Of a DNA stretch of 64,000 nucleotides, positions 14,249 through 25,112 are shown in pieces. Made by a program: the position numbers and the translations under genes. Numbering within the stretch: position 1 is the first letter of the stretch; every line of letters begins with the position of its first letter. The DNA lies in NCBI RefSeq assembly GCF_055900595.2, contig NZ_CM148325.1; one strand, 5' to 3'. A model generated the notes under the pieces. That model saw only the letters and a list, made by a program, of their open reading frames with translations. It was not told the origin of the DNA and ran no database searches.

Positions 14249-15610
14249 ATGAAACTAAAGACCACATTGTTCGGCAATGTATATCAGTTTAAGGATGTAA
14301 AAGAGGTGCTGGCTAAAGCCAACGAACTGCGTTCGGGGGATGTGCTGGCGGGCGTTGCAGCGGCAAGTTCACAGGAGCGCGTGGCGGCAAAGCAGGTGTT
14401 GTCGGAAATGACCGTAGCGGACATCCGCAATAATCCGGTGATTGCCTATGAAGATGACTGCGTGACGCGGCTGATTCAGGACGACGTTAACGAAACGGCC
14501 TACAACCAGATTAAAAACTGGAGCATCAGCGAACTGCGTGAGTATGTGCTGAGTGATGAAACCAGCGTGGACGACATTGCCTTTACCCGCAAAGGGCTGA
14601 CCTCGGAAGTGGTCGCGGCGGTAGCGAAGATTTGCTCCAACGCGGACCTGATCTACGGCGCGAAGAAAATGCCGATTATCAAAAAGGCCAATACTACCAT
14701 CGGTATTCCGGGCACCTTTAGCGCCCGTTTGCAGCCGAACGATACCCGTGACGACGTGCAGAGTATCGCCGCGCAAATCTACGAAGGGCTTTCCTTCGGG
14801 GTAGGCGATGCGGTGATCGGCGTTAACCCGGTGACTGACGACGTGGAAAACTTAAGCCGCGTGCTGGATACCATCTATGGCGTGATCGACAAATTCAACA
14901 TTCCGACCCAGGGCTGCGTGCTGGCGCACGTTACTACCCAGATTGAAGCGATCCGTCGCGGCGCGCCGGGCGGGCTGATTTTCCAGAGCATCTGCGGCAG
15001 CGAAAAAGGGCTGAAAGAATTTGGCGTGGAGCTGGCGATGCTCGATGAAGCACGCGCAGTGGGCGCAGAGTTTAACCGTATCGCCGGGGAAAACTGCCTC
15101 TACTTCGAAACCGGGCAAGGTTCTGCGCTATCGGCGGGCGCTAACTTCGGCGCAGATCAGGTAACGATGGAAGCGCGTAACTACGGGCTGGCACGTCATT
15201 ACGATCCGTTTATCGTCAACACCGTAGTGGGCTTTATTGGGCCAGAGTATCTCTACAACGACCGGCAGATTATCCGTGCGGGCTTAGAAGATCACTTTAT
15301 GGGCAAACTGAGCGGCATTTCTATGGGCTGTGACTGCTGCTACACCAACCACGCTGACGCTGACCAGAACCTCAACGAAAACCTGATGATCCTGCTCGCC
15401 ACCGCAGGCTGCAACTACATCATGGGGATGCCGCTGGGTGATGACATCATGCTCAACTACCAGACCACCGCATTCCACGATACCGCCACTGTGCGTCAGT
15501 TACTCAACCTGCGCCCGTCACCGGAGTTTGAACGCTGGCTGGAAAGCATGGGCATTATGGCAAACGGTCGCCTGACCAAACGGGCGGGCGATCCGTCACT
15601 GTTCTTCTGA
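14249..15610 (+). CDS. eutB: ethanolamine ammonia-lyase heavy chain EutB
   Basis: 453-aa ORF starting 11 nt after eutA stop. Confidence 0.93.
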   Translation: MKLKTTLFGNVYQFKDVKEVLAKANELRSGDVLAGVAAASSQERVAAKQVLSEMTVADIRNNPVIAYEDDCVTRLIQDDVNETAYNQIKNWSISELREYVLSDETSVDDIAFTRKGLTSEVVAAVAKICSNADLIYGAKKMPIIKKANTTIGIPGTFSARLQPNDTRDDVQSIAAQIYEGLSFGVGDAVIGVNPVTDDVENLSRVLDTIYGVIDKFNIPTQGCVLAHVTTQIEAIRRGAPGGLIFQSICGSEKGLKEFGVELAMLDEARAVGAEFNRIAGENCLYFETGQGSALSAGANFGADQVTMEARNYGLARHYDPFIVNTVVGFIGPEYLYNDRQIIRAGLEDHFMGKLSGISMGCDCCYTNHADADQNLNENLMILLATAGCNYIMGMPLGDDIMLNYQTTAFHDTATVRQLLNLRPSPEFERWLESMGIMANGRLTKRAGDPSLFF

Positions 15611-15630
15611 TGACGCGGAGATAACACATC

Positions 15631-16518
15631 ATGGATCAAAAACAGATTGAAGAAATTGTACGCAGCGTGATGGCGTCAATGGGACAAGCGGCCCCCGCGC
15701 CGTCAGAAGCAAAATGCGCCACTACCACCTGTGCAGCACCGATGACCTCGGAAAGCTGCGCGCTGGATTTAGGTTCCGCAGAAGCAAAAGCGTGGATTGG
15801 CGTTGAAAACCCACATCGCGCAGACGTATTAACTGAACTGCGCCGCAGCACCGTGGCTCGCGTCTGTACCGGTCGTGCCGGTCCGCGTCCGCGTACCCAG
15901 GCGTTGCTGCGTTTCCTGGCCGATCACTCTCGTTCGAAAGACACCGTACTGAAAGAAGTGCCGGAAGAGTGGGTGAAAGCGCAGGGCTTGCTGGAGGTCC
16001 GCTCTGAAATTAGCGACAAAAATCTCTATCTGACTCGCCCGGATATGGGCCGCCGCTTGTGTGCAGAGGCTGTTGAAGCGCTGAAAGCGCAGTGTGTTGC
16101 CAATCCGGACGTACAGGTCGTTATTTCTGATGGCCTGTCAACTGATGCGATCACCGTGAACTACGAAGAGATCCTGCCACCGCTGATGGCGGGCCTGAAA
16201 CAGGCCGGGTTGAAAGTCGGCACACCGTTCTTTGTGCGTTACGGTCGCGTGAAGATTGAAGATCAGATTGGCGAACTTCTTGGCGCGAAAGTGGTGATCC
16301 TGCTGGTGGGGGAACGCCCAGGATTAGGGCAGTCAGAAAGCCTCTCCTGCTACGCCGTTTACTCGCCGCGTATGGCAACCACCGTTGAGGCCGATCGCAC
16401 CTGTATCTCTAACATTCACCAGGGCGGCACGCCGCCGGTTGAAGCCGCAGCCGTCATTGTGGATTTGGCGAAACGTATGCTGGAGCAGAAAGCATCCGGC
16501 ATCAACATGACCCGATAA
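15631..16518 (+). CDS. eutC: ethanolamine ammonia-lyase light chain EutC
   Basis: 295-aa ORF; operon position. Confidence 0.93.
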
Positions 16519-16527
16519 GGAGGCATC

Positions 16528-17187
16528 ATGCCAGCTTTAGATTTGATTCGACCGTCGGTAACCGCCATGCGGGTGATTGCCTCTGTCAACGCCGAATTTG
16601 CGCGTGAACTGAAATTGCCGCCGCATATTCGTAGCCTCGGGCTGATTTCTGCTGATTCCGATGACGTCACCTACATTGCGGCTGACGAAGCGACCAAGCA
16701 GGCGATGGTTGAAGTCGTGTATGGTCGCTCGCTGTATGCGGGAGCTGCACACGGGCCGTCACCGACTGCCGGTGAGGTGCTGATTATGCTTGGTGGGCCA
16801 AACCCGGCGGAAGTGCGTGCTGGTCTGGATGCGATGGTTGCGCATATTGAAAATGGCGCTGCTTTCCAGTGGGCTAATGATGCAGAAAACACAGCCTTCC
16901 TGGCGCATGTCGTTTCGCGTACCGGCTCTTATCTCTCATCAACCGCCGGGATCACGCTTGGCGATCCGCTGGCGTATCTGGTGGCACCGCCGCTGGAAGC
17001 GACCTACGGCATTGATGCAGCGTTGAAATCTGCCGACGTGCAGCTGGTGACCTATGTCCCGCCACCGTCTGAAACCAACTACTCGGCAGCATTTTTAACC
17101 GGTAGCCAGGCCGCGTGTAAAGCAGCCTGTAACGCCTTTACCGATGCAGTGCTGGAAATCGCGCGTAATCCAATCCAGCGTGCGTAA
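16528..17187 (+). CDS. eutL: microcompartment shell protein EutL (tandem BMC)
   Basis: 219-aa ORF; operon position. Confidence 0.92.
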
Positions 17188-17193
17188 CGGAGG

Positions 17194-17700
17194 TTGCCGA
17201 TGATCAATGCACTGGGATTGCTGGAAGTGGACGGCATGGTCGCCGCGATAGATGCAGCTGATGCCATGCTCAAAGCAGCTAACGTTCGTCTGCTCAGTCA
17301 CGAAGTGCTTGACCCTGGTCGCCTAACGCTGGTGGTGGAAGGCGATCTGGCGGCGTGTCGTGCGGCGCTGGACGCAGGTTGTGCTGCCGCGATGCGTACC
17401 GGGCGTGTCATCAGCCGTAAGGAGATCGGTCGGCCAGACGATGACACCCAGTGGCTGGTTACTGGCTTTAACCGCCAGCCGAAGCAACCCGTAAAGGAAC
17501 CCGACGCGCCAGTTATCGTCGCGGAATCTGCTGACGAGTTGTTGGCGCTGTTAACATCAGTACGTCAGGGAATGACGGCAGGAGAAGTGGCTGCCCACTT
17601 TGGCTGGCCGCTGGAAAAAGCCAGAAATGCGCTCGAACAGCTCTTTTCTGCCGGGACGTTACGTAAACGCAGTAGTCGTTATCGTCTCAAGCCCCATTAA
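17194..17700 (+). CDS. eutK: microcompartment shell protein EutK
   Basis: 168-aa ORF with BMC domain plus C-terminal basic tail; true start may be the ATG 6 nt downstream. Confidence 0.9.
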   Translation: MPMINALGLLEVDGMVAAIDAADAMLKAANVRLLSHEVLDPGRLTLVVEGDLAACRAALDAGCAAAMRTGRVISRKEIGRPDDDTQWLVTGFNRQPKQPVKEPDAPVIVAESADELLALLTSVRQGMTAGEVAAHFGWPLEKARNALEQLFSAGTLRKRSSRYRLKPH

Positions 17701-17745
17701 CCTGTCGGAGGTGCCGGGTGTCCTACAACACCCGGCATTAACATC

Positions 17746-18798
17746 ATGAAAAAGACCCGTACAGCTAATTTGCACCATCTTTATCATGAACCCTTACCCG
17801 AAAACCTGAAGCTAACGCCGAAGGTCGAAGTGGATAATGTTCATCAACGGCAAACAACGGATGTCTATGAACATGCTTTGACGATTACCGCCTGGCAGCA
17901 GATTTACGATCAGCTGCATCCGGGCAAATTTCATGGTGAATTTACGGAAATTCTGCTCGATGATATTCAGGTTTTCCGTGAATACACGGGGCTGGCGCTG
18001 CGTCAGTCGTGCCTGGTCTGGCCGAATTCGTTCTGGTTTGGCATTCCGGCGACGCGCGGTGAGCAGGGATTTATCGGTTCGCAATGTCTGGGAAGCGCAG
18101 AAATAGCGACGCGCCCTGGTGGAACCGAGTTTGAATTAAGTACGCCGGACGATTACACGATCCTTGGCGTGGTGCTTTCTGAAGATGTCATCACCCGGCA
18201 GGCTAACTTTTTGCATAACCCGGAAAGGGTGCTGCATATGTTACGTAACCAGTCGGCGCTGGAAGTGAAAGAGCAGCATAAAGCCGCGCTGTGGGGCTTT
18301 GTCCAACAGGCTCTGGCGACATTTTGCGAGAACCCGGAAAATCTCCATCAGCCTGCAGTGCGAAAAGTGCTGGGGGATAATTTGCTAATGGCGATGGGGG
18401 CGATGCTGGAAGAAGCGCAGCCAATGGTGACGGTGGAAAGCATCAGTCATCAGAGTTACCGTCGGTTGCTTTCCCGCGCCCGTGAATATGTGCTGGAAAA
18501 CATGTCCGAACCGGTGACGGTGCTGGACTTGTGTAATCAACTGCACGTCAGTCGCCGCACCTTGCAAAACGCATTTCACGCTATTTTGGGCATTGGCCCG
18601 AATGCGTGGCTGAAACGCATTCGCCTGAACGCCGTGCGCCGTGAACTGATTAGCCCGTGGTCGCAAAGTATGACGGTAAAAGACGCCGCCATGCAGTGGG
18701 GATTCTGGCATCTTGGGCAGTTTGCCACGGATTATCAGCAATTGTTTGCAGAAAAGCCTTCACTGACGCTGCATCAGCGGATGCAGGAACTGGAGTGA
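17746..18798 (+). CDS. eutR: AraC-family transcriptional activator of eut operon
   Basis: 350-aa ORF with C-terminal AraC-type HTH; last gene of operon. Confidence 0.92.
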
Positions 18799-18874
18799 GG
18801 GTGAGGGCCGGATGAGGATGGTGTTTGATCCGGTCCATAGTGAAGTTACAAATTACGTTGAATTGCTATGTATT

Positions 18875-19192
18875 TTATTGCCCAACGGGATAGGCGATAA
18901 ACAAACCGACAATTGTCAAAATACACGCCAGCAGGAATACCAACATACAATTTACGCGCTTTCGCGAAATTTTAAATAAATAGCAAAATAGTGTTGTTAC
19001 CACGATCACTACCGGGATAGTCATAAAATTAATAACGATGAGTGCTATCAATCCAAAACTTGCTCCTCCACCGTGGGGAATAAAAATGTGTTCTTCAAAA
19101 TAAACTTCTATAGCAAATGCCAGCACACATCCCAGAAAACTCATATCCAGATGAGGGTGCCATTTACTTTCTTTATGTGATGTGTCTGACAT
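18875..19192 (-). CDS. hypothetical small membrane protein (about three predicted TM segments), not recognised
   Basis: 105-aa ORF; hydrophobic stretches LGCVLAFAIEVYF, FGLIALIVINFMTIPVVIVVTTLFCYLF, MLVFLLACILTIVGLFIAYPV; SD-like gggag about 9 nt upstream of ATG; 40 bp downstream of the 420-aa ORF on same strand; AT-rich. Confidence 0.6.
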   Translation of the reverse strand: MSDTSHKESKWHPHLDMSFLGCVLAFAIEVYFEEHIFIPHGGGASFGLIALIVINFMTIPVVIVVTTLFCYLFKISRKRVNCMLVFLLACILTIVGLFIAYPVGQ

Positions 19193-19232
19193 TCTTAAAT
19201 GCTCCCGTGAGCAAACTGGCGCAAAATAATTT

Positions 19233-20495
19233 CTAAGATTGCTGATAAGACGTCGCTGTTGTCCGGCACTCCGGGCAGATAAACGCGTAAATTATCCCTT
19301 CGCCGTATTGTTCAATATCGGCATAATCCAGTTGCGCAAGAAACATCATTGTGTGGGAACATTGCGGACAGAGAGGATATTCCGCGTCCTGAATCCAGGT
19401 TGGATGCCCGCCAAGTTGCGAGAAAGAGACAGGTAAAAATGGGTCTGCGGCAAATAACGGTGACCTAAGGTTTCCCTGTCTCATGCTGTTTACAGGGAGT
19501 CGACGCCATTCCGATACATCATCCGGCAGCCAGGCAGGCGGGATATTTTTTGCAGACAAATGAGCGTTACCCTTTGAGTCCATGTAGCCGAAAATGGTGC
19601 TGTAGGCGGTGCAACATTCGCAAGTCACGACGCGAAAACTGCCGTTATCGCTAAGACCCGTTGCCTTCAGGTCAACGTCGAAAAGATTTGTTAGTGGCAA
19701 TGCGCAATTTGGACAGGTATCGTTGCGTTCATCAACAACACGCAAAGCTTCGCAAGACCCGGTGCTTTTCATCTCCAGATGAAAACATTGAGGAAAATAG
19801 AGATTACGCCTTTGATCTTCAGCGGTTAACTCCCAACCGGCCTCATGCGCATATTCTTCAGGCTCGATGTAAAGGGAGCTGCGCCACGGCGGTGGGCTAT
19901 TGCGCCAGTGGGCAAAACGTTCAACGACAACGTCATCCCCAATCCATGCCAGACATTGCAGAATACAATTTCTGTTTTCTGCATCATCCTCAACCCGTTC
20001 TAACAGCCTGTCGCGTACATCTGTGGGGGCGCGGTGGAAAGGCATATAAGAATCATTGTCCAAATCATCGTAAGAGATCCATTCTCTGAAATAGGCATTC
20101 AGATTCGCCTGGGTAAATGCCGCCAGACAAAGGCAAATCTCCTGAGCGAGCTTATATTCACCAGATGCAAAGCGTTCTGTGGCGTAATCAGCCATCAGCT
20201 GCGCTTGATCGGTGGTCAGTTGTTGATACAGGGCATCTGTGGGAACGGGGCAGGGAGTCCAGTCGATTAACGCATCGAATTTCCGCGGTTGGTGAATTAA
20301 TTTCAGCATGACAACCGGATCGCTTAACCCTGCAAACGCATTCACGATCTTTTTGTTTTTCTTGATATATTCGTCGTGCTCACGTTGCTGTTGGGCCTGC
20401 TCGCAGGGCATGCAGTATCCGTTAGTACGCGCTGCGGTTTCCGGAAGAATGGTTGATATACAAGCGGGGCTTTTACAGGGAATACGGTGAGTCAT
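19233..20495 (-). CDS. hypothetical cysteine-rich protein, unrecognised; C-terminal region resembles DUF1963/YwqG-type domain
   Basis: 420-aa ORF with aggag SD 7 nt upstream of ATG; three CxxC-containing pairs (CKSPAC/CMPC, CPNC/CECC, CPQC/CPEC); no signal peptide or TM segment; not in K-12 gene order between eutR and hemF. Confidence 0.8.
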   Translation of the reverse strand: MTHRIPCKSPACISTILPETAARTNGYCMPCEQAQQQREHDEYIKKNKKIVNAFAGLSDPVVMLKLIHQPRKFDALIDWTPCPVPTDALYQQLTTDQAQLMADYATERFASGEYKLAQEICLCLAAFTQANLNAYFREWISYDDLDNDSYMPFHRAPTDVRDRLLERVEDDAENRNCILQCLAWIGDDVVVERFAHWRNSPPPWRSSLYIEPEEYAHEAGWELTAEDQRRNLYFPQCFHLEMKSTGSCEALRVVDERNDTCPNCALPLTNLFDVDLKATGLSDNGSFRVVTCECCTAYSTIFGYMDSKGNAHLSAKNIPPAWLPDDVSEWRRLPVNSMRQGNLRSPLFAADPFLPVSFSQLGGHPTWIQDAEYPLCPQCSHTMMFLAQLDYADIEQYGEGIIYAFICPECRTTATSYQQS

Positions 20496-20633
20496 AGAGG
20501 CGCTCCTTGCCTGAGGATATTAAGTCGAAAGAGATTATTATTAGATATTAGGGTGTCACTATGGCACACAAATTAAAACAGCATTAATTTTATGCCACCA
20601 ACCGAGGGTTATTTTTCTTTTATTTTCATGATA

Positions 20634-21536
<903 letters not shown>

Positions 21537-22406
21537 TTACCGCTTTCTCGAGTGTGCTTTCTGGTTGTCAAACCAGTGGAAATAACTGATCACGCCTTCG
21601 GCAATGGCTGTGGCGATTTTCTGGCGAAATGCCGCCGTGCCTAACAGCCGCTCTTCTTCCGGGTTGGTGATAAAAGAAGTTTCCACCAGCACCGAAGGAA
21701 CAGATGGCGATTTCAACACTACAAACGCGGCTTGTTCGGTATTGCGGCTGTGCAGCTTATGCACCGGCTTAATCTTCTTCAGAATATGTGAGCCGAGCGT
21801 CAGGCTGTTTTTAATAGTATCGGTTTGTACCAGATCAAACAGCACTTGTTGCAATAGGTGATCCTTGTCAGTCGCTTTTTTACCGGCAACTTCATCAGCG
21901 CGGTTTTCGCGTTCAGACAGGTATTTCGCCATTGCGCTACTTGCCCCACGGTTAGAGAGAGCAAATACCGAAGCACCGGCAGCTTTCGGGTTGGTAAAGC
22001 CATCGGCATGAATTGACATAAACAGATCTGCGCCATGTTTATGGGCGATTTCAACGCGATCGTAAAGTGGGATAAACGTATCGCCAGAACGCGTTAAACG
22101 CGCATCAATGCCATGATTACGCAAAATGGAACGGACGTTTTTGGCAATTGCCAGCACCACATGTTTTTCTTTCGAACCGTTGCGACCAATCGCCCCGGTA
22201 TCAATCCCGCCGTGGCCTGGATCGAGAACAACGACACGTTTGCCGCCGTTTTTTTTTGCTTTCGGCTTGCTGTGTCCGTTGCTGGTTTTTAAAGGTTCTT
22301 CTTTGGCGATGGCTTGCGACATTCCTGACAACGTCAGGGCAGCCAATCCGGCTTTCAGCACCTGGCGGCGCGAAGTGAGTGTTTTTAGTGGTTTAAAAGT
22401 GCTCAT
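21537..22406 (-). CDS. amiA: N-acetylmuramoyl-L-alanine amidase A (Tat-exported)
   Basis: 289-aa ORF with twin-arginine signal SRRQVLKAG and amidase_3 domain; 3 bp upstream of hemF. Confidence 0.93.
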   Translation of the reverse strand: MSTFKPLKTLTSRRQVLKAGLAALTLSGMSQAIAKEEPLKTSNGHSKPKAKKNGGKRVVVLDPGHGGIDTGAIGRNGSKEKHVVLAIAKNVRSILRNHGIDARLTRSGDTFIPLYDRVEIAHKHGADLFMSIHADGFTNPKAAGASVFALSNRGASSAMAKYLSERENRADEVAGKKATDKDHLLQQVLFDLVQTDTIKNSLTLGSHILKKIKPVHKLHSRNTEQAAFVVLKSPSVPSVLVETSFITNPEEERLLGTAAFRQKIATAIAEGVISYFHWFDNQKAHSRKR

Positions 22407-22619
22407 ACGGCCTGAGTTGTAATAATAAAGTTCCAGATGTTATATCGTATCGCGTAATCCGTTACGACCGTTTGCTGTTGAGAATTGTTTTACTTTTCAT
22501 TTCAATAGTTGACAACTCCCCATTATGCCACTTTTTCAACCGATTTTCGTCAGATATTGGCTAATTCGACCGTTCACGCCATAATCAGCCTTTTAACCCG
22601 CAAAAAGGTAACGAATACC

Positions 22620-23045
22620 ATGGAGATACGCGTATTTCGCCAGGAAGATTTCGAAGAGGTCATCACCCTTTGGGAGCGTTGCGACTTGCTGCGTCCGTGG
22701 AACGATCCGGAAATGGACATCGAGCGTAAGATGAACCATGACGTCAGTTTGTTTCTGGTCGCTGAGGTAAACGGTGAAGTGGTCGGAACGGTGATGGGCG
22801 GTTATGACGGGCATCGCGGGTCTGCTTATTATCTTGGCGTGCATCCAGAGTTTCGTGGGCGTGGGATTGCTAATGCGTTGCTTAATCGGTTGGAGAAAAA
22901 GCTGATTGCTCGCGGCTGCCCGAAAATTCAGATCAACGTGCCGGAAGATAACGACATGGTGCTCGGAATGTATGAACGCCTGGGATATGAACACGCCGAC
23001 GTGCTGAGTCTGGGTAAGCGTTTGATTGAAGATGAAGAGTACTGA
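22620..23045 (+). CDS. ypeA: GNAT-family acetyltransferase
   Basis: Internal ATG of ORF 22509-23045; product [27 protein letters not shown]... (141 aa). Confidence 0.88.
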
Positions 23046-23481
23046 GTTTCATCCTGTCCATTATGATGCGCACGGTCGCCTGCGTTTACCCTTGCTCTTC
23101 TGGCTTGTGCTATTGCTTCAGGCGCGAACCTGGGTGCTGTTTGTCATTGCCGGTGCGTCGCGCGAGCAGGGTACTGCGCTGCTAAATCTGTTTTATCCCG
23201 ATCACGATAATTTCTGGCTGGGGTTGATTCCCGGTATTCCGGCGGTGCTGGCGTTTTTGTTGAGTGGTCGGCGGGCTTCATTTCCCCGTATCTGGCATGT
23301 GCTCTATTTTCTGTTGCTGTTGGCGCAGGTGGTTTTACTTTGCTGGCAACCGTGGCTGTGGCTGAACGGTGAATCCGTTAGCGGTATCGGTCTGGCGCTG
23401 GTGGTGGCGGATATTGTGGTGTTAATCTGGCTGCTGACCAATCGACGTTTACGCGCTTGTTTTAATGAAGAAAAAGAATAA
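23026..23481 (+). CDS. yfeZ: inner membrane protein YfeZ
   Basis: 151-aa hydrophobic ORF overlapping ypeA 3' end; start may be 6 nt downstream. Confidence 0.85.
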
Positions 23482-23541
23482 CGGCACTTTTTGGTGAATT
23501 TGCACTCCAAGCAACGTTATTGAATAACCAAAGGAAGTGAC

Positions 23542-24117
23542 ATGAAATCGCTGCGTTTAATGTTATGCGCTATGCCGTTGATGCTGACCGGCTGTTCCAC
23601 GATGTCGTCAGTTAACTGGTCTGCCGCTAACCCGTGGAACTGGTTTGGGTCGTCCACCAAAGTGAGCGAGCAGGGCGTTGGTGAATTAACGGCGTCCACA
23701 CCACTGCAAGAACAAGCCATTGCCGATGCGCTTGATGGCGATTATCGCCTGCGCAGCGGAATGAAAACCGCGAACGGCAACGTGGTGCGCTTTTTTGAAG
23801 TGATGAAAGGCGACAACGTGGCGATGGTAATTAACGGCGATCAGGGCACGATCAGCCGCATTGATGTGCTGGATAGCGATATTCCTGCTGACACCGGTGT
23901 TAAAATCGGTACACCGTTTAGCGACCTTTACAGCAAAGCATTTGGCAATTGCCAAAAAGCTGATGGTGATGATAATCGTGCCGTCGAATGTAAAGCCGAA
24001 GGCAGTCAACATATTAGCTACCAGTTCAGCGGGGAATGGAGTGGTCCTGAAGGGTTAATGCCTTCGGACGATACCCTGAAAAACTGGAAAGTCAGTAAAA
24101 TTATCTGGCGGCGTTAA
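23542..24117 (+). CDS. yfeY: lipoprotein YfeY
   Basis: 191-aa ORF with lipobox LMLTGC. Confidence 0.88.
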   Translation: MKSLRLMLCAMPLMLTGCSTMSSVNWSAANPWNWFGSSTKVSEQGVGELTASTPLQEQAIADALDGDYRLRSGMKTANGNVVRFFEVMKGDNVAMVINGDQGTISRIDVLDSDIPADTGVKIGTPFSDLYSKAFGNCQKADGDDNRAVECKAEGSQHISYQFSGEWSGPEGLMPSDDTLKNWKVSKIIWRR

Positions 24118-24128
24118 TTTGCGTCTGA

Positions 24129-25112
<984 letters not shown>

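Follow-up and report, generated by a model that had tools for sequence, protein, structure and literature searches.

From our analysis of a 64,000-nucleotide stretch of an E. coli chromosome (NCBI RefSeq assembly GCF_055900595.2, contig NZ_CM148325.1; hereafter, the window), the minus-strand open reading frame (ORF) at positions 19233-20495, with an ATG start and 420 codons plus a stop, was found to encode a TYPP/DUF1963 protein. We consider it probable that the product, which belongs to the TYPP superfamily (TSR4/YwqG/PDCD2L/PDCD2; Pfam DUF1963), is a soluble and cytoplasmic protein that binds another protein without acting as an enzyme and, by analogy with its eukaryotic relatives, grips an extended peptide. 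An earlier note, made from the letters of the sequence, had described a 420-amino acid (aa) ORF at exactly these coordinates, with the strand unstated. The testable elements of its account were borne out; that the N-terminal 200 residues form a C4 finger and a HEAT-like solenoid had been left undescribed. RefSeq holds a 100% identical copy of the 420-aa protein under WP_032303504.1 as "DUF1963 domain-containing protein".

The AlphaFold2 model, built on an alignment of 40 sequences from Proteobacteria, Firmicutes and metagenomes (A1), has a mean predicted local distance difference test score (pLDDT) of 93.9 and a predicted template modelling score of 0.88. It comprises a zinc-finger-like N-terminus (aa 1-47), about ten helices (aa 48-219) and a beta-rich C-terminal half, and the second cysteine pair of the N-terminal finger lies at the start of a helix formed by residues 29-47. 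Along the protein, a C4 finger at the N-terminus is followed by a HEAT-like solenoid and then by a complete TYPP domain, the two repeats of which carry one Cys4 ribbon each:

19233-20495, minus strand: complete coding sequence, 420 aa plus stop (RefSeq WP_032303504.1)
20355-20495, minus strand: putative N-terminal C4 zinc finger (C7-x4-C12-x15-C28-x2-C31), aa 1-47, from cysteine conservation and the AlphaFold2 model (pLDDT 88-94)
19884-20354, minus strand: alpha-helical HEAT/ARM-like solenoid of about ten helices, aa 48-204
19485-19883, minus strand: TYPP repeat 1, with degenerate GGxP and the putative zinc ribbon C261/C264/C292/C295, aa 205-337
19236-19484, minus strand: TYPP repeat 2, with the SQLGGHPTWIQDAEYP motif, the putative zinc ribbon C376/C379/C407/C410 and the pocket residue Q388 (FLAQ), aa 338-420

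The protein has 20 cysteines, 12 of which are grouped as C7/C12/C28/C31, C261/C264/C292/C295 and C376/C379/C407/C410, so that both TYPP repeats carry two CxxC pairs each. These three clusters had been listed in the earlier note, and a conserved cysteine pattern was found among the homologues. In A1, 11 of the 12 cluster cysteines are invariant and C410 is nearly so. In a second conservation set of 150 representatives of 50%-identity clusters, in which counts were made over the sequences covering each position, the eight C-terminal cysteines are kept in 96-100% of the covering sequences and the four N-terminal ones in all 59-75 representatives that possess the N-terminus, bar one exception at C12. 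Such a cysteine pattern in a TYPP/DUF1963 protein exceeds chance, and we infer from it three zinc sites, in keeping with the earlier suggestion of up to three metal sites.

Near-invariant positions are concentrated in repeat 2, in which 27 of the 83 columns are conserved at >=90% (18 of 133 in repeat 1), making it the densest region of the protein. G362, G363 and W367 occur in 140 of the 140 representatives, P365 in 136 of 140 and Q388 in 138 of 139; the GGxP motif of this repeat is G362-G363-H-P365, and its FLAQ motif contains Q388. Conserved D370, E399 and Y403 and the near-invariant Q388 lie in a deep pocket, and the repeat ends in a conserved C-terminal TTATxYQQ(S/T). The counterpart of GGxP in repeat 1 is degenerate (A219-G220-W221-E222). 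By hhalign, the segment CPNC...CECC (260-305) pairs with CPQC...CPEC (375-420) at an E-value of 2.6e-4, which establishes an internal repeat; the earlier idea of a degenerate second copy in the central segment is thereby upheld, and it fits the published two-repeat definition of TYPP (PMC4275035).

In the Pfam scan, the single significant match of the protein was to DUF1963 (PF09234; independent E-value 5.8e-5, 24 bits), covering aa 359-406 and only positions 1-51 of the 216 in the model. Among the 40 aligned relatives, 18 matched DUF1963 at E<=1e-3 and all 40 at E<=0.1, and the precomputed DUF1963 labels on orthologues are flagged "weak" or "faint". By hhalign, repeat 2 aligned with the canonical YwqG/DUF1963 profile with a probability of 94.7% (E 5.7e-8), which together with the significant, if partial, Pfam match bears out the DUF1963/YwqG-like C-terminus proposed in the earlier note. 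A hidden Markov model built from 10 canonical YwqG proteins recovered 79 of the 79 family members among 958 local ORFs. The family comprises 1435 clusters (50% identity) at E<=1e-3 and 273 at E<=1e-30. It is conserved end to end at ~40% identity in Enterobacteriaceae, Chitinimonas, Paenibacillus and uncultured lineages; a genome scan added members in Clostridium, Planctomycetota and Verrucomicrobiota, and a Foldseek search with the AlphaFold2 model found a Campylobacter showae protein (E 8e-22).

No enzyme family was matched in the NCBIfam, PADLOC, Pfam or PDB sequence searches, in agreement with the lack of a recognisable catalytic motif remarked on earlier. The only NCBIfam match was to an FmdB zinc ribbon and fell below threshold (13.7 bits against a cutoff of 31.3), the PADLOC models gave zero matches for the 420-aa protein, and the PDB sequence-profile search returned chance matches only (E>0.1), 1PV5 being undetectable by profile at this depth. 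No transmembrane segment was found in the protein either, the 19-residue Kyte-Doolittle window reaching a maximum of 1.28, as had been noted from the sequence. For the N-terminal C4 finger, the Pfam scan found no zinc-finger family in the protein, and no zf-dskA_traR match in the protein or in its 40 relatives. More than half of the cluster representatives lack this finger or have other N-termini, the TYPP domain being retained. A 667-aa Paenibacillus protein (P0104) has a DUF2625 domain fused N-terminally to a complete family member, and three relatives of ~500 aa (P0178, P0201 and P0233) carry an additional helical region in place of the zinc finger.

Burroughs and Aravind (2014; PMC4275035) united DUF1963/YwqG with the eukaryotic proteins TSR4, PDCD2 and PDCD2L in the TYPP superfamily, which they defined by two all-beta repeat units, each with GGxP and a conserved Q, and with paired CxxC motifs in a subset. 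In their "family two", most members have an N-terminal alpha-helical domain and several have a C4 zinc finger at the extreme N-terminus, which was typed as DksA/TraR in some members. A full-length Salmonella enterica protein served as a search seed in that study, and Campylobacter showae was among the species recovered. In the E. coli protein, we found two tandem all-beta repeats of the YwqG (1PV5) fold, an N-terminal alpha-helical domain fused to the TYPP domain as in the prokaryotic family two, and a conserved C4 finger, yet one that has no zf-dskA_traR match in Pfam. From its sequence and model, the E. coli protein appears to belong to family two, an assignment that rests on architecture and not on a member list.

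The mechanism that we propose draws on homology with PDCD2/Tsr4 and on the published analysis of the YwqG structure. In eukaryotes, PDCD2 and Tsr4 serve as dedicated chaperones of the ribosomal protein uS5. Human PDCD2 no longer binds uS5 once conserved residues in one or the other of its TYPP repeats are substituted, and the part of uS5 that Tsr4 recognises is its unstructured N-terminal region (PMC7736825). Because this N-terminal segment of uS5 is eukaryote-specific, bacterial TYPP proteins must serve other clients (PMC7736825). In the E. coli protein, the three zinc sites would be structural, and the repeat-2 pocket (GGHPxW...Q388) with its cleft would close on a peptide, extended or disordered, that belongs to a single specific partner protein. 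Additional contact surfaces may come from the solenoid and from the N-terminal finger, and the protein would act as a dedicated chaperone, adaptor or inhibitor and not as a catalyst. A non-enzymatic binder is favoured because no catalytic family was matched in any library. Repeat 2 is the part richest in near-invariant positions across Proteobacteria, Firmicutes and metagenomes, and a conserved ligand is therefore expected. The TYPP gene would act by itself or, in enterics, possibly jointly with the neighbouring ypfK, which is among the features around it:

20503-20507, minus strand: Shine-Dalgarno sequence AGGAG, 7 nt 5' of the ATG, read off the sequence
20496-20633, minus strand: 138-bp spacer between hemF and the TYPP gene, without consensus promoter or intrinsic terminator
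18875-19192, minus strand: ORF for a 105-aa small membrane protein, YpfK (Pfam PF26378, from the label on orthologues)

On the minus strand, the gene order is amiA (21537-22406), hemF (20634-21533), the TYPP gene and the 105-aa ORF (18875-19192), and eutR (17746-18798, plus strand) converges on this series. A scan of 18700-20750 yielded zero promoter-like and zero terminator-like sites, which is weak negative evidence; since neither was found in the spacer, transcription of the TYPP gene by read-through from amiA-hemF is possible. The G+C content of the gene (0.495, against 0.519 for the whole window) is roughly host-like, as the earlier note had judged by eye.

The TYPP gene is present in 25-28 of 5426 complete E. 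coli genomes. The 1.83-kb segment that holds the two genes (window 18799-20633) sits exactly between the convergent stops of eutR and hemF, which lie 5 bp apart in typical E. coli (L095:4399-4405). The TYPP gene also follows hemF in E. albertii, Citrobacter, Kluyvera, Yokenella and Salmonella. Its synonymous divergence (dS) from E. albertii is 0.62 (0.54-0.62 for hemF/amiA), and its ratio of nonsynonymous to synonymous divergence (dN/dS) is 0.16-0.18 in comparisons with E. albertii and Citrobacter, against 0.02-0.05 for hemF/amiA; for intact alleles the ratio is 0.16-0.22. In strain EC42405 (L090:1934-3196), the gene is annotated as a pseudogene and has an internal stop at codon 322, because of which its loss in E. 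coli appears to be ongoing. In essence, the TYPP gene is old, vertically inherited and fast-evolving; it is under purifying selection and has been lost from most E. coli.

Other histories of the locus were considered. Recent horizontal acquisition in E. coli is unlikely, given a dS equal to that of hemF/amiA and a position after hemF common to the enteric genera, and the view of the gene as decaying junk was rejected for the intact alleles on account of their dN/dS of 0.16-0.22. An origin from phages or other mobile elements was rejected because relatives of the TYPP protein were absent from 50,697 phage records and from IMG/VR, and the plasmids gave one weak partial match only. An anti-phage defence system of a known kind was likewise set aside, there being no PADLOC match and no phage or mobile-element context. 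When window positions 14400-25100 were compared with a typical E. coli genome (L095), we noticed a mosaic of identity, 89-100% per 200 bp, and past recombination in the eut-hemF region might have left such tracts. The lowest identity (90-92%) is found in the 200-400 bp on either side of the islet, with like troughs at 14800-15200 and 16200-16400. As a mark of an ancient haplotype, raised divergence beside the islet is therefore an unclear signal, the divergence being patchy over the whole region. In Citrobacter sp. S2-9 (L009:3784-4833), hemF and the TYPP gene are separated by an inserted gene for an ankyrin-repeat protein of 349 aa, so that the site just past hemF behaves like a small variable region of Enterobacteriaceae genomes.

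The ypfK ORF begins 40 bp past the stop of the TYPP gene and has a G+C content of 0.38 (window, 0.52) and hydropathy segments at residues ~44-72 and 79-103. Its distribution is confined to Escherichia, Salmonella and Kluyvera, where it is usually found beside the TYPP gene. It adjoins the TYPP gene in E. coli (40 bp), E. albertii and Kluyvera (15 bp), within a range of 15-50 bp; the order is inverted in Salmonella, with ypfK upstream. In some Salmonella ypfK occurs without the TYPP gene, and the reverse holds for Yokenella and Citrobacter. The 80 TYPP loci of other taxa contain no YpfK homologue, and a universal partnership with YpfK was rejected, YpfK being enteric-only. Linkage of the two genes within enterics is suggestive; it does not explain a family that spans many phyla. 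A literature search on YpfK, and on the Salmonella locus tags STM2452/STM2453, returned nothing relevant.

Those 80 loci come from a scan of species-representative genomes. The commonest neighbour cluster, present at 16 of 78 loci, reflects Paenibacillus synteny. At 22 of the 78 loci, all in Bacillales (Sporosarcina, Lysinibacillus, Solibacillus, Paenibacillus and Fontibacillus), the TYPP gene stands in a co-directional array of variable content (e.g., L040:57-12127, L029, L034 and L022, with 18 other Bacillales loci) that includes SMI1_KNR4/SUKH (E 1e-24), SUFU (3e-19), ankyrin, canonical DUF1963 (5e-36) and DUF6138 families. In these arrays, one SUKH is fused to TPR, canonical DUF1963 genes occur singly or in twos, and the DUF6138 proteins are of ~555-580 aa. 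Unnamed genes for 224-aa and 134-aa proteins, neither of which has a Pfam match, lie directly 5' of the TYPP gene in Bacillales arrays with gaps of 12-18 bp. One Paenibacillus island has at its edge (L029:1755-3373) a putative kinase+HD protein next to a putative RNA-ligase-like protein, both identified by eye. In the available text of the survey by Zhang et al. (2012; PMC3482391), SUKH, SuFu and ankyrin are described as immunity families typical of heterogeneous polyimmunity loci, and DUF1963/YwqG has zero occurrences among the immunity families there. The Bacillales arrays look like heterogeneous polyimmunity islands; TYPP proteins have not been reported from islands of this kind. Outside Bacillales, nothing recurs among the neighbours but ABC transporters, AraC regulators and glycosidases, and no family of immunity proteins does so. 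No toxin gene was seen beside the TYPP gene in E. coli, in any examined locus or among the recurring neighbour clusters.

Several observations weigh against a peptide-gripping binder. The PDCD2/Tsr4 analogy would cover the mode of binding only, because the eukaryotic client segment, the N-terminal extension of uS5, does not exist in bacteria; zinc binding is read from conservation; no experimental study of any bacterial TYPP protein was found in the literature searched; and neither a partner nor a neighbour family conserved across phyla was identified among the 80 loci. Moreover, ~99.5% of the complete E. coli genomes are without the gene and one carrier has an internal stop, from which it follows that the function is dispensable. 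As a special case of the binder model, the protein could be of immunity type, neutralising an incoming or resident polymorphic toxin and kept as a pre-emptive defence. The arrays with SUKH, SUFU, ankyrin and canonical DUF1963 genes at 22 of the 78 loci, in several Bacillales genera, agree with this, as do the ankyrin-repeat gene between hemF and the TYPP gene in Citrobacter, a TYPP dN/dS that is 3-10 times that of the flanking genes, and the patchy presence in E. coli with its one pseudogene allele. We nevertheless hold it to be an unlikely, minority hypothesis, because no toxin was seen next to the gene, because the signal is limited to one order, with transporters, regulators and glycosidases elsewhere, and because the putative binding repeat is strongly conserved across phyla, which is unusual for proteins that track diversifying toxins. 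The Bacillales islands could also stem from one ancestral arrangement, and YwqG/DUF1963 is not among the immunity families in the text of the 2012 survey available. Conceivably, though we think it rather unlikely, bacterial TYPP proteins at large (HEAT-fused and canonical YwqG) may be unrecognised conflict-related binders that serve as immunity factors or decoys for interbacterial toxins and are kept in polyimmunity islands with SUKH, SuFu and ankyrin proteins; PDCD2/Tsr4 would then have been recruited from the bacterial immunity pool, as has been proposed for SUKH and SuFu. If so, the hemF-proximal gene of E. coli and Salmonella would be a genetically tractable entry point to such proteins.

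The enteric loci raise the alternative of a two-gene module, in which the TYPP protein would, for example, chaperone or regulate YpfK via the short hydrophilic N-terminal tail of the latter. E. coli, E. albertii and Kluyvera have the two genes side by side, as does Salmonella in inverted order, and both evolve fast (dN/dS 0.16 for the TYPP gene and 0.30 for ypfK); however, YpfK is confined to three genera, with 0 homologues in the 80 other loci, while TYPP spans many phyla, each gene occurs without the other (the TYPP gene in Yokenella and Citrobacter, ypfK in some Salmonella), and both may merely occupy the same variable spot downstream of hemF. This makes such a module decidedly improbable. 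That the protein is a transcription- or nucleic-acid-associated factor, whose finger contacts RNA polymerase as DksA/TraR does, or else nucleic acid, with the TYPP domain in a regulatory role, is very unlikely in our estimate. The finger cysteines are invariant where the finger is present, but DksA has the spacing CxxC-x17-CxxC, unlike the C-x4-C-x15-C-x2-C of the E. coli TYPP protein. A DksA/TraR-type finger has been described for some members of family two (PMC4275035), but Pfam matched neither zf-dskA_traR nor any other DNA/RNA-binding family here, and TYPP is kept without the finger in more than half of the cluster representatives. An enzyme, e.g., one that modifies peptides with the pocket glutamine and the neighbouring polar residues, would make sense of the deep pocket with its near-invariant Q and conserved D370, E399 and Y403. 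A catalytic role was in fact raised as a "radical" alternative in PMC4275035, whose authors see little enzymological precedent for it; with no catalytic motif, no similarity to an enzyme family and eukaryotic relatives that are chaperones, we regard catalysis as extremely improbable.

Since the RefSeq annotation and the computational description of the architecture from 2014 exist, the finding falls within an already known, uncharacterised family, and as the result of a genome scan it mostly re-derives existing database annotation. Its interest lies in the contrast between eukaryotic relatives, PDCD2/Tsr4, that are essential dedicated uS5 chaperones and a bacterial TYPP role that lacks experiments in the literature searched. 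In enterics, the TYPP gene occupies a fixed chromosomal spot (E. coli, Salmonella and Kluyvera), is under purifying selection and is naturally missing in most strains, which makes it an easy genetic and biochemical model for the ligand of the ancestral TYPP pocket. The Bacillales context, in turn, raises a testable link to toxin immunity.

In comparison with known systems, the protein falls outside the canonical YwqG group of stand-alone TYPP proteins of ~250-300 aa, as it has 420 aa and two extra N-terminal modules and forms a separate cluster in an all-against-all BLAST. Sequence identity to B. subtilis YwqG (PDB 1PV5) is 11-12%. The canonical YwqG/DUF1963 proteins sampled here (246-297 aa) are too short for an N-terminal finger plus a HEAT-like domain and have no Cys4 zinc ribbon in the segment aligned to E. 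coli repeat 2. The best profile match joins E. coli repeat 2 to YwqG repeat 1, with only one repeat aligning; Q388 of the FLAQ motif is aligned with the FLAQ of canonical YwqG proteins, and GGxP has been lost in repeat 1 of the E. coli protein (AGWE).

With PDCD2, PDCD2L and Tsr4, the E. coli protein shares the domain superfamily, the two repeats, GGxP, Q and CxxC-like motifs. PDCD2/Tsr4 bind an unstructured peptide segment of their client and need both repeats to do so; the E. coli protein differs from them in having neither a MYND insert nor a low-complexity insert, none being visible between its repeats. The immunity proteins of polymorphic toxins (SUKH, Imm-SuFu, Imm-Ank and Imm-HEAT) are similar as solitary cytoplasmic binders with fast evolution and patchy distribution, and TYPP genes co-localise with SUKH, SuFu and Ank genes in the Bacillales arrays; the TYPP gene differs in having no adjacent toxin, a core conserved between phyla and an ordinary context outside Bacillales. 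Relative to the prokaryotic TYPP family two, the DksA/TraR affinity of the finger was not reproduced with Pfam. The protein is like that family in its two-repeat TYPP domain with GGxP, Q and a CxxC pair per repeat, in its helical N-terminal domain, in the C4 finger seen in some members, and in being bacterial and outside a ribosome-biogenesis context.

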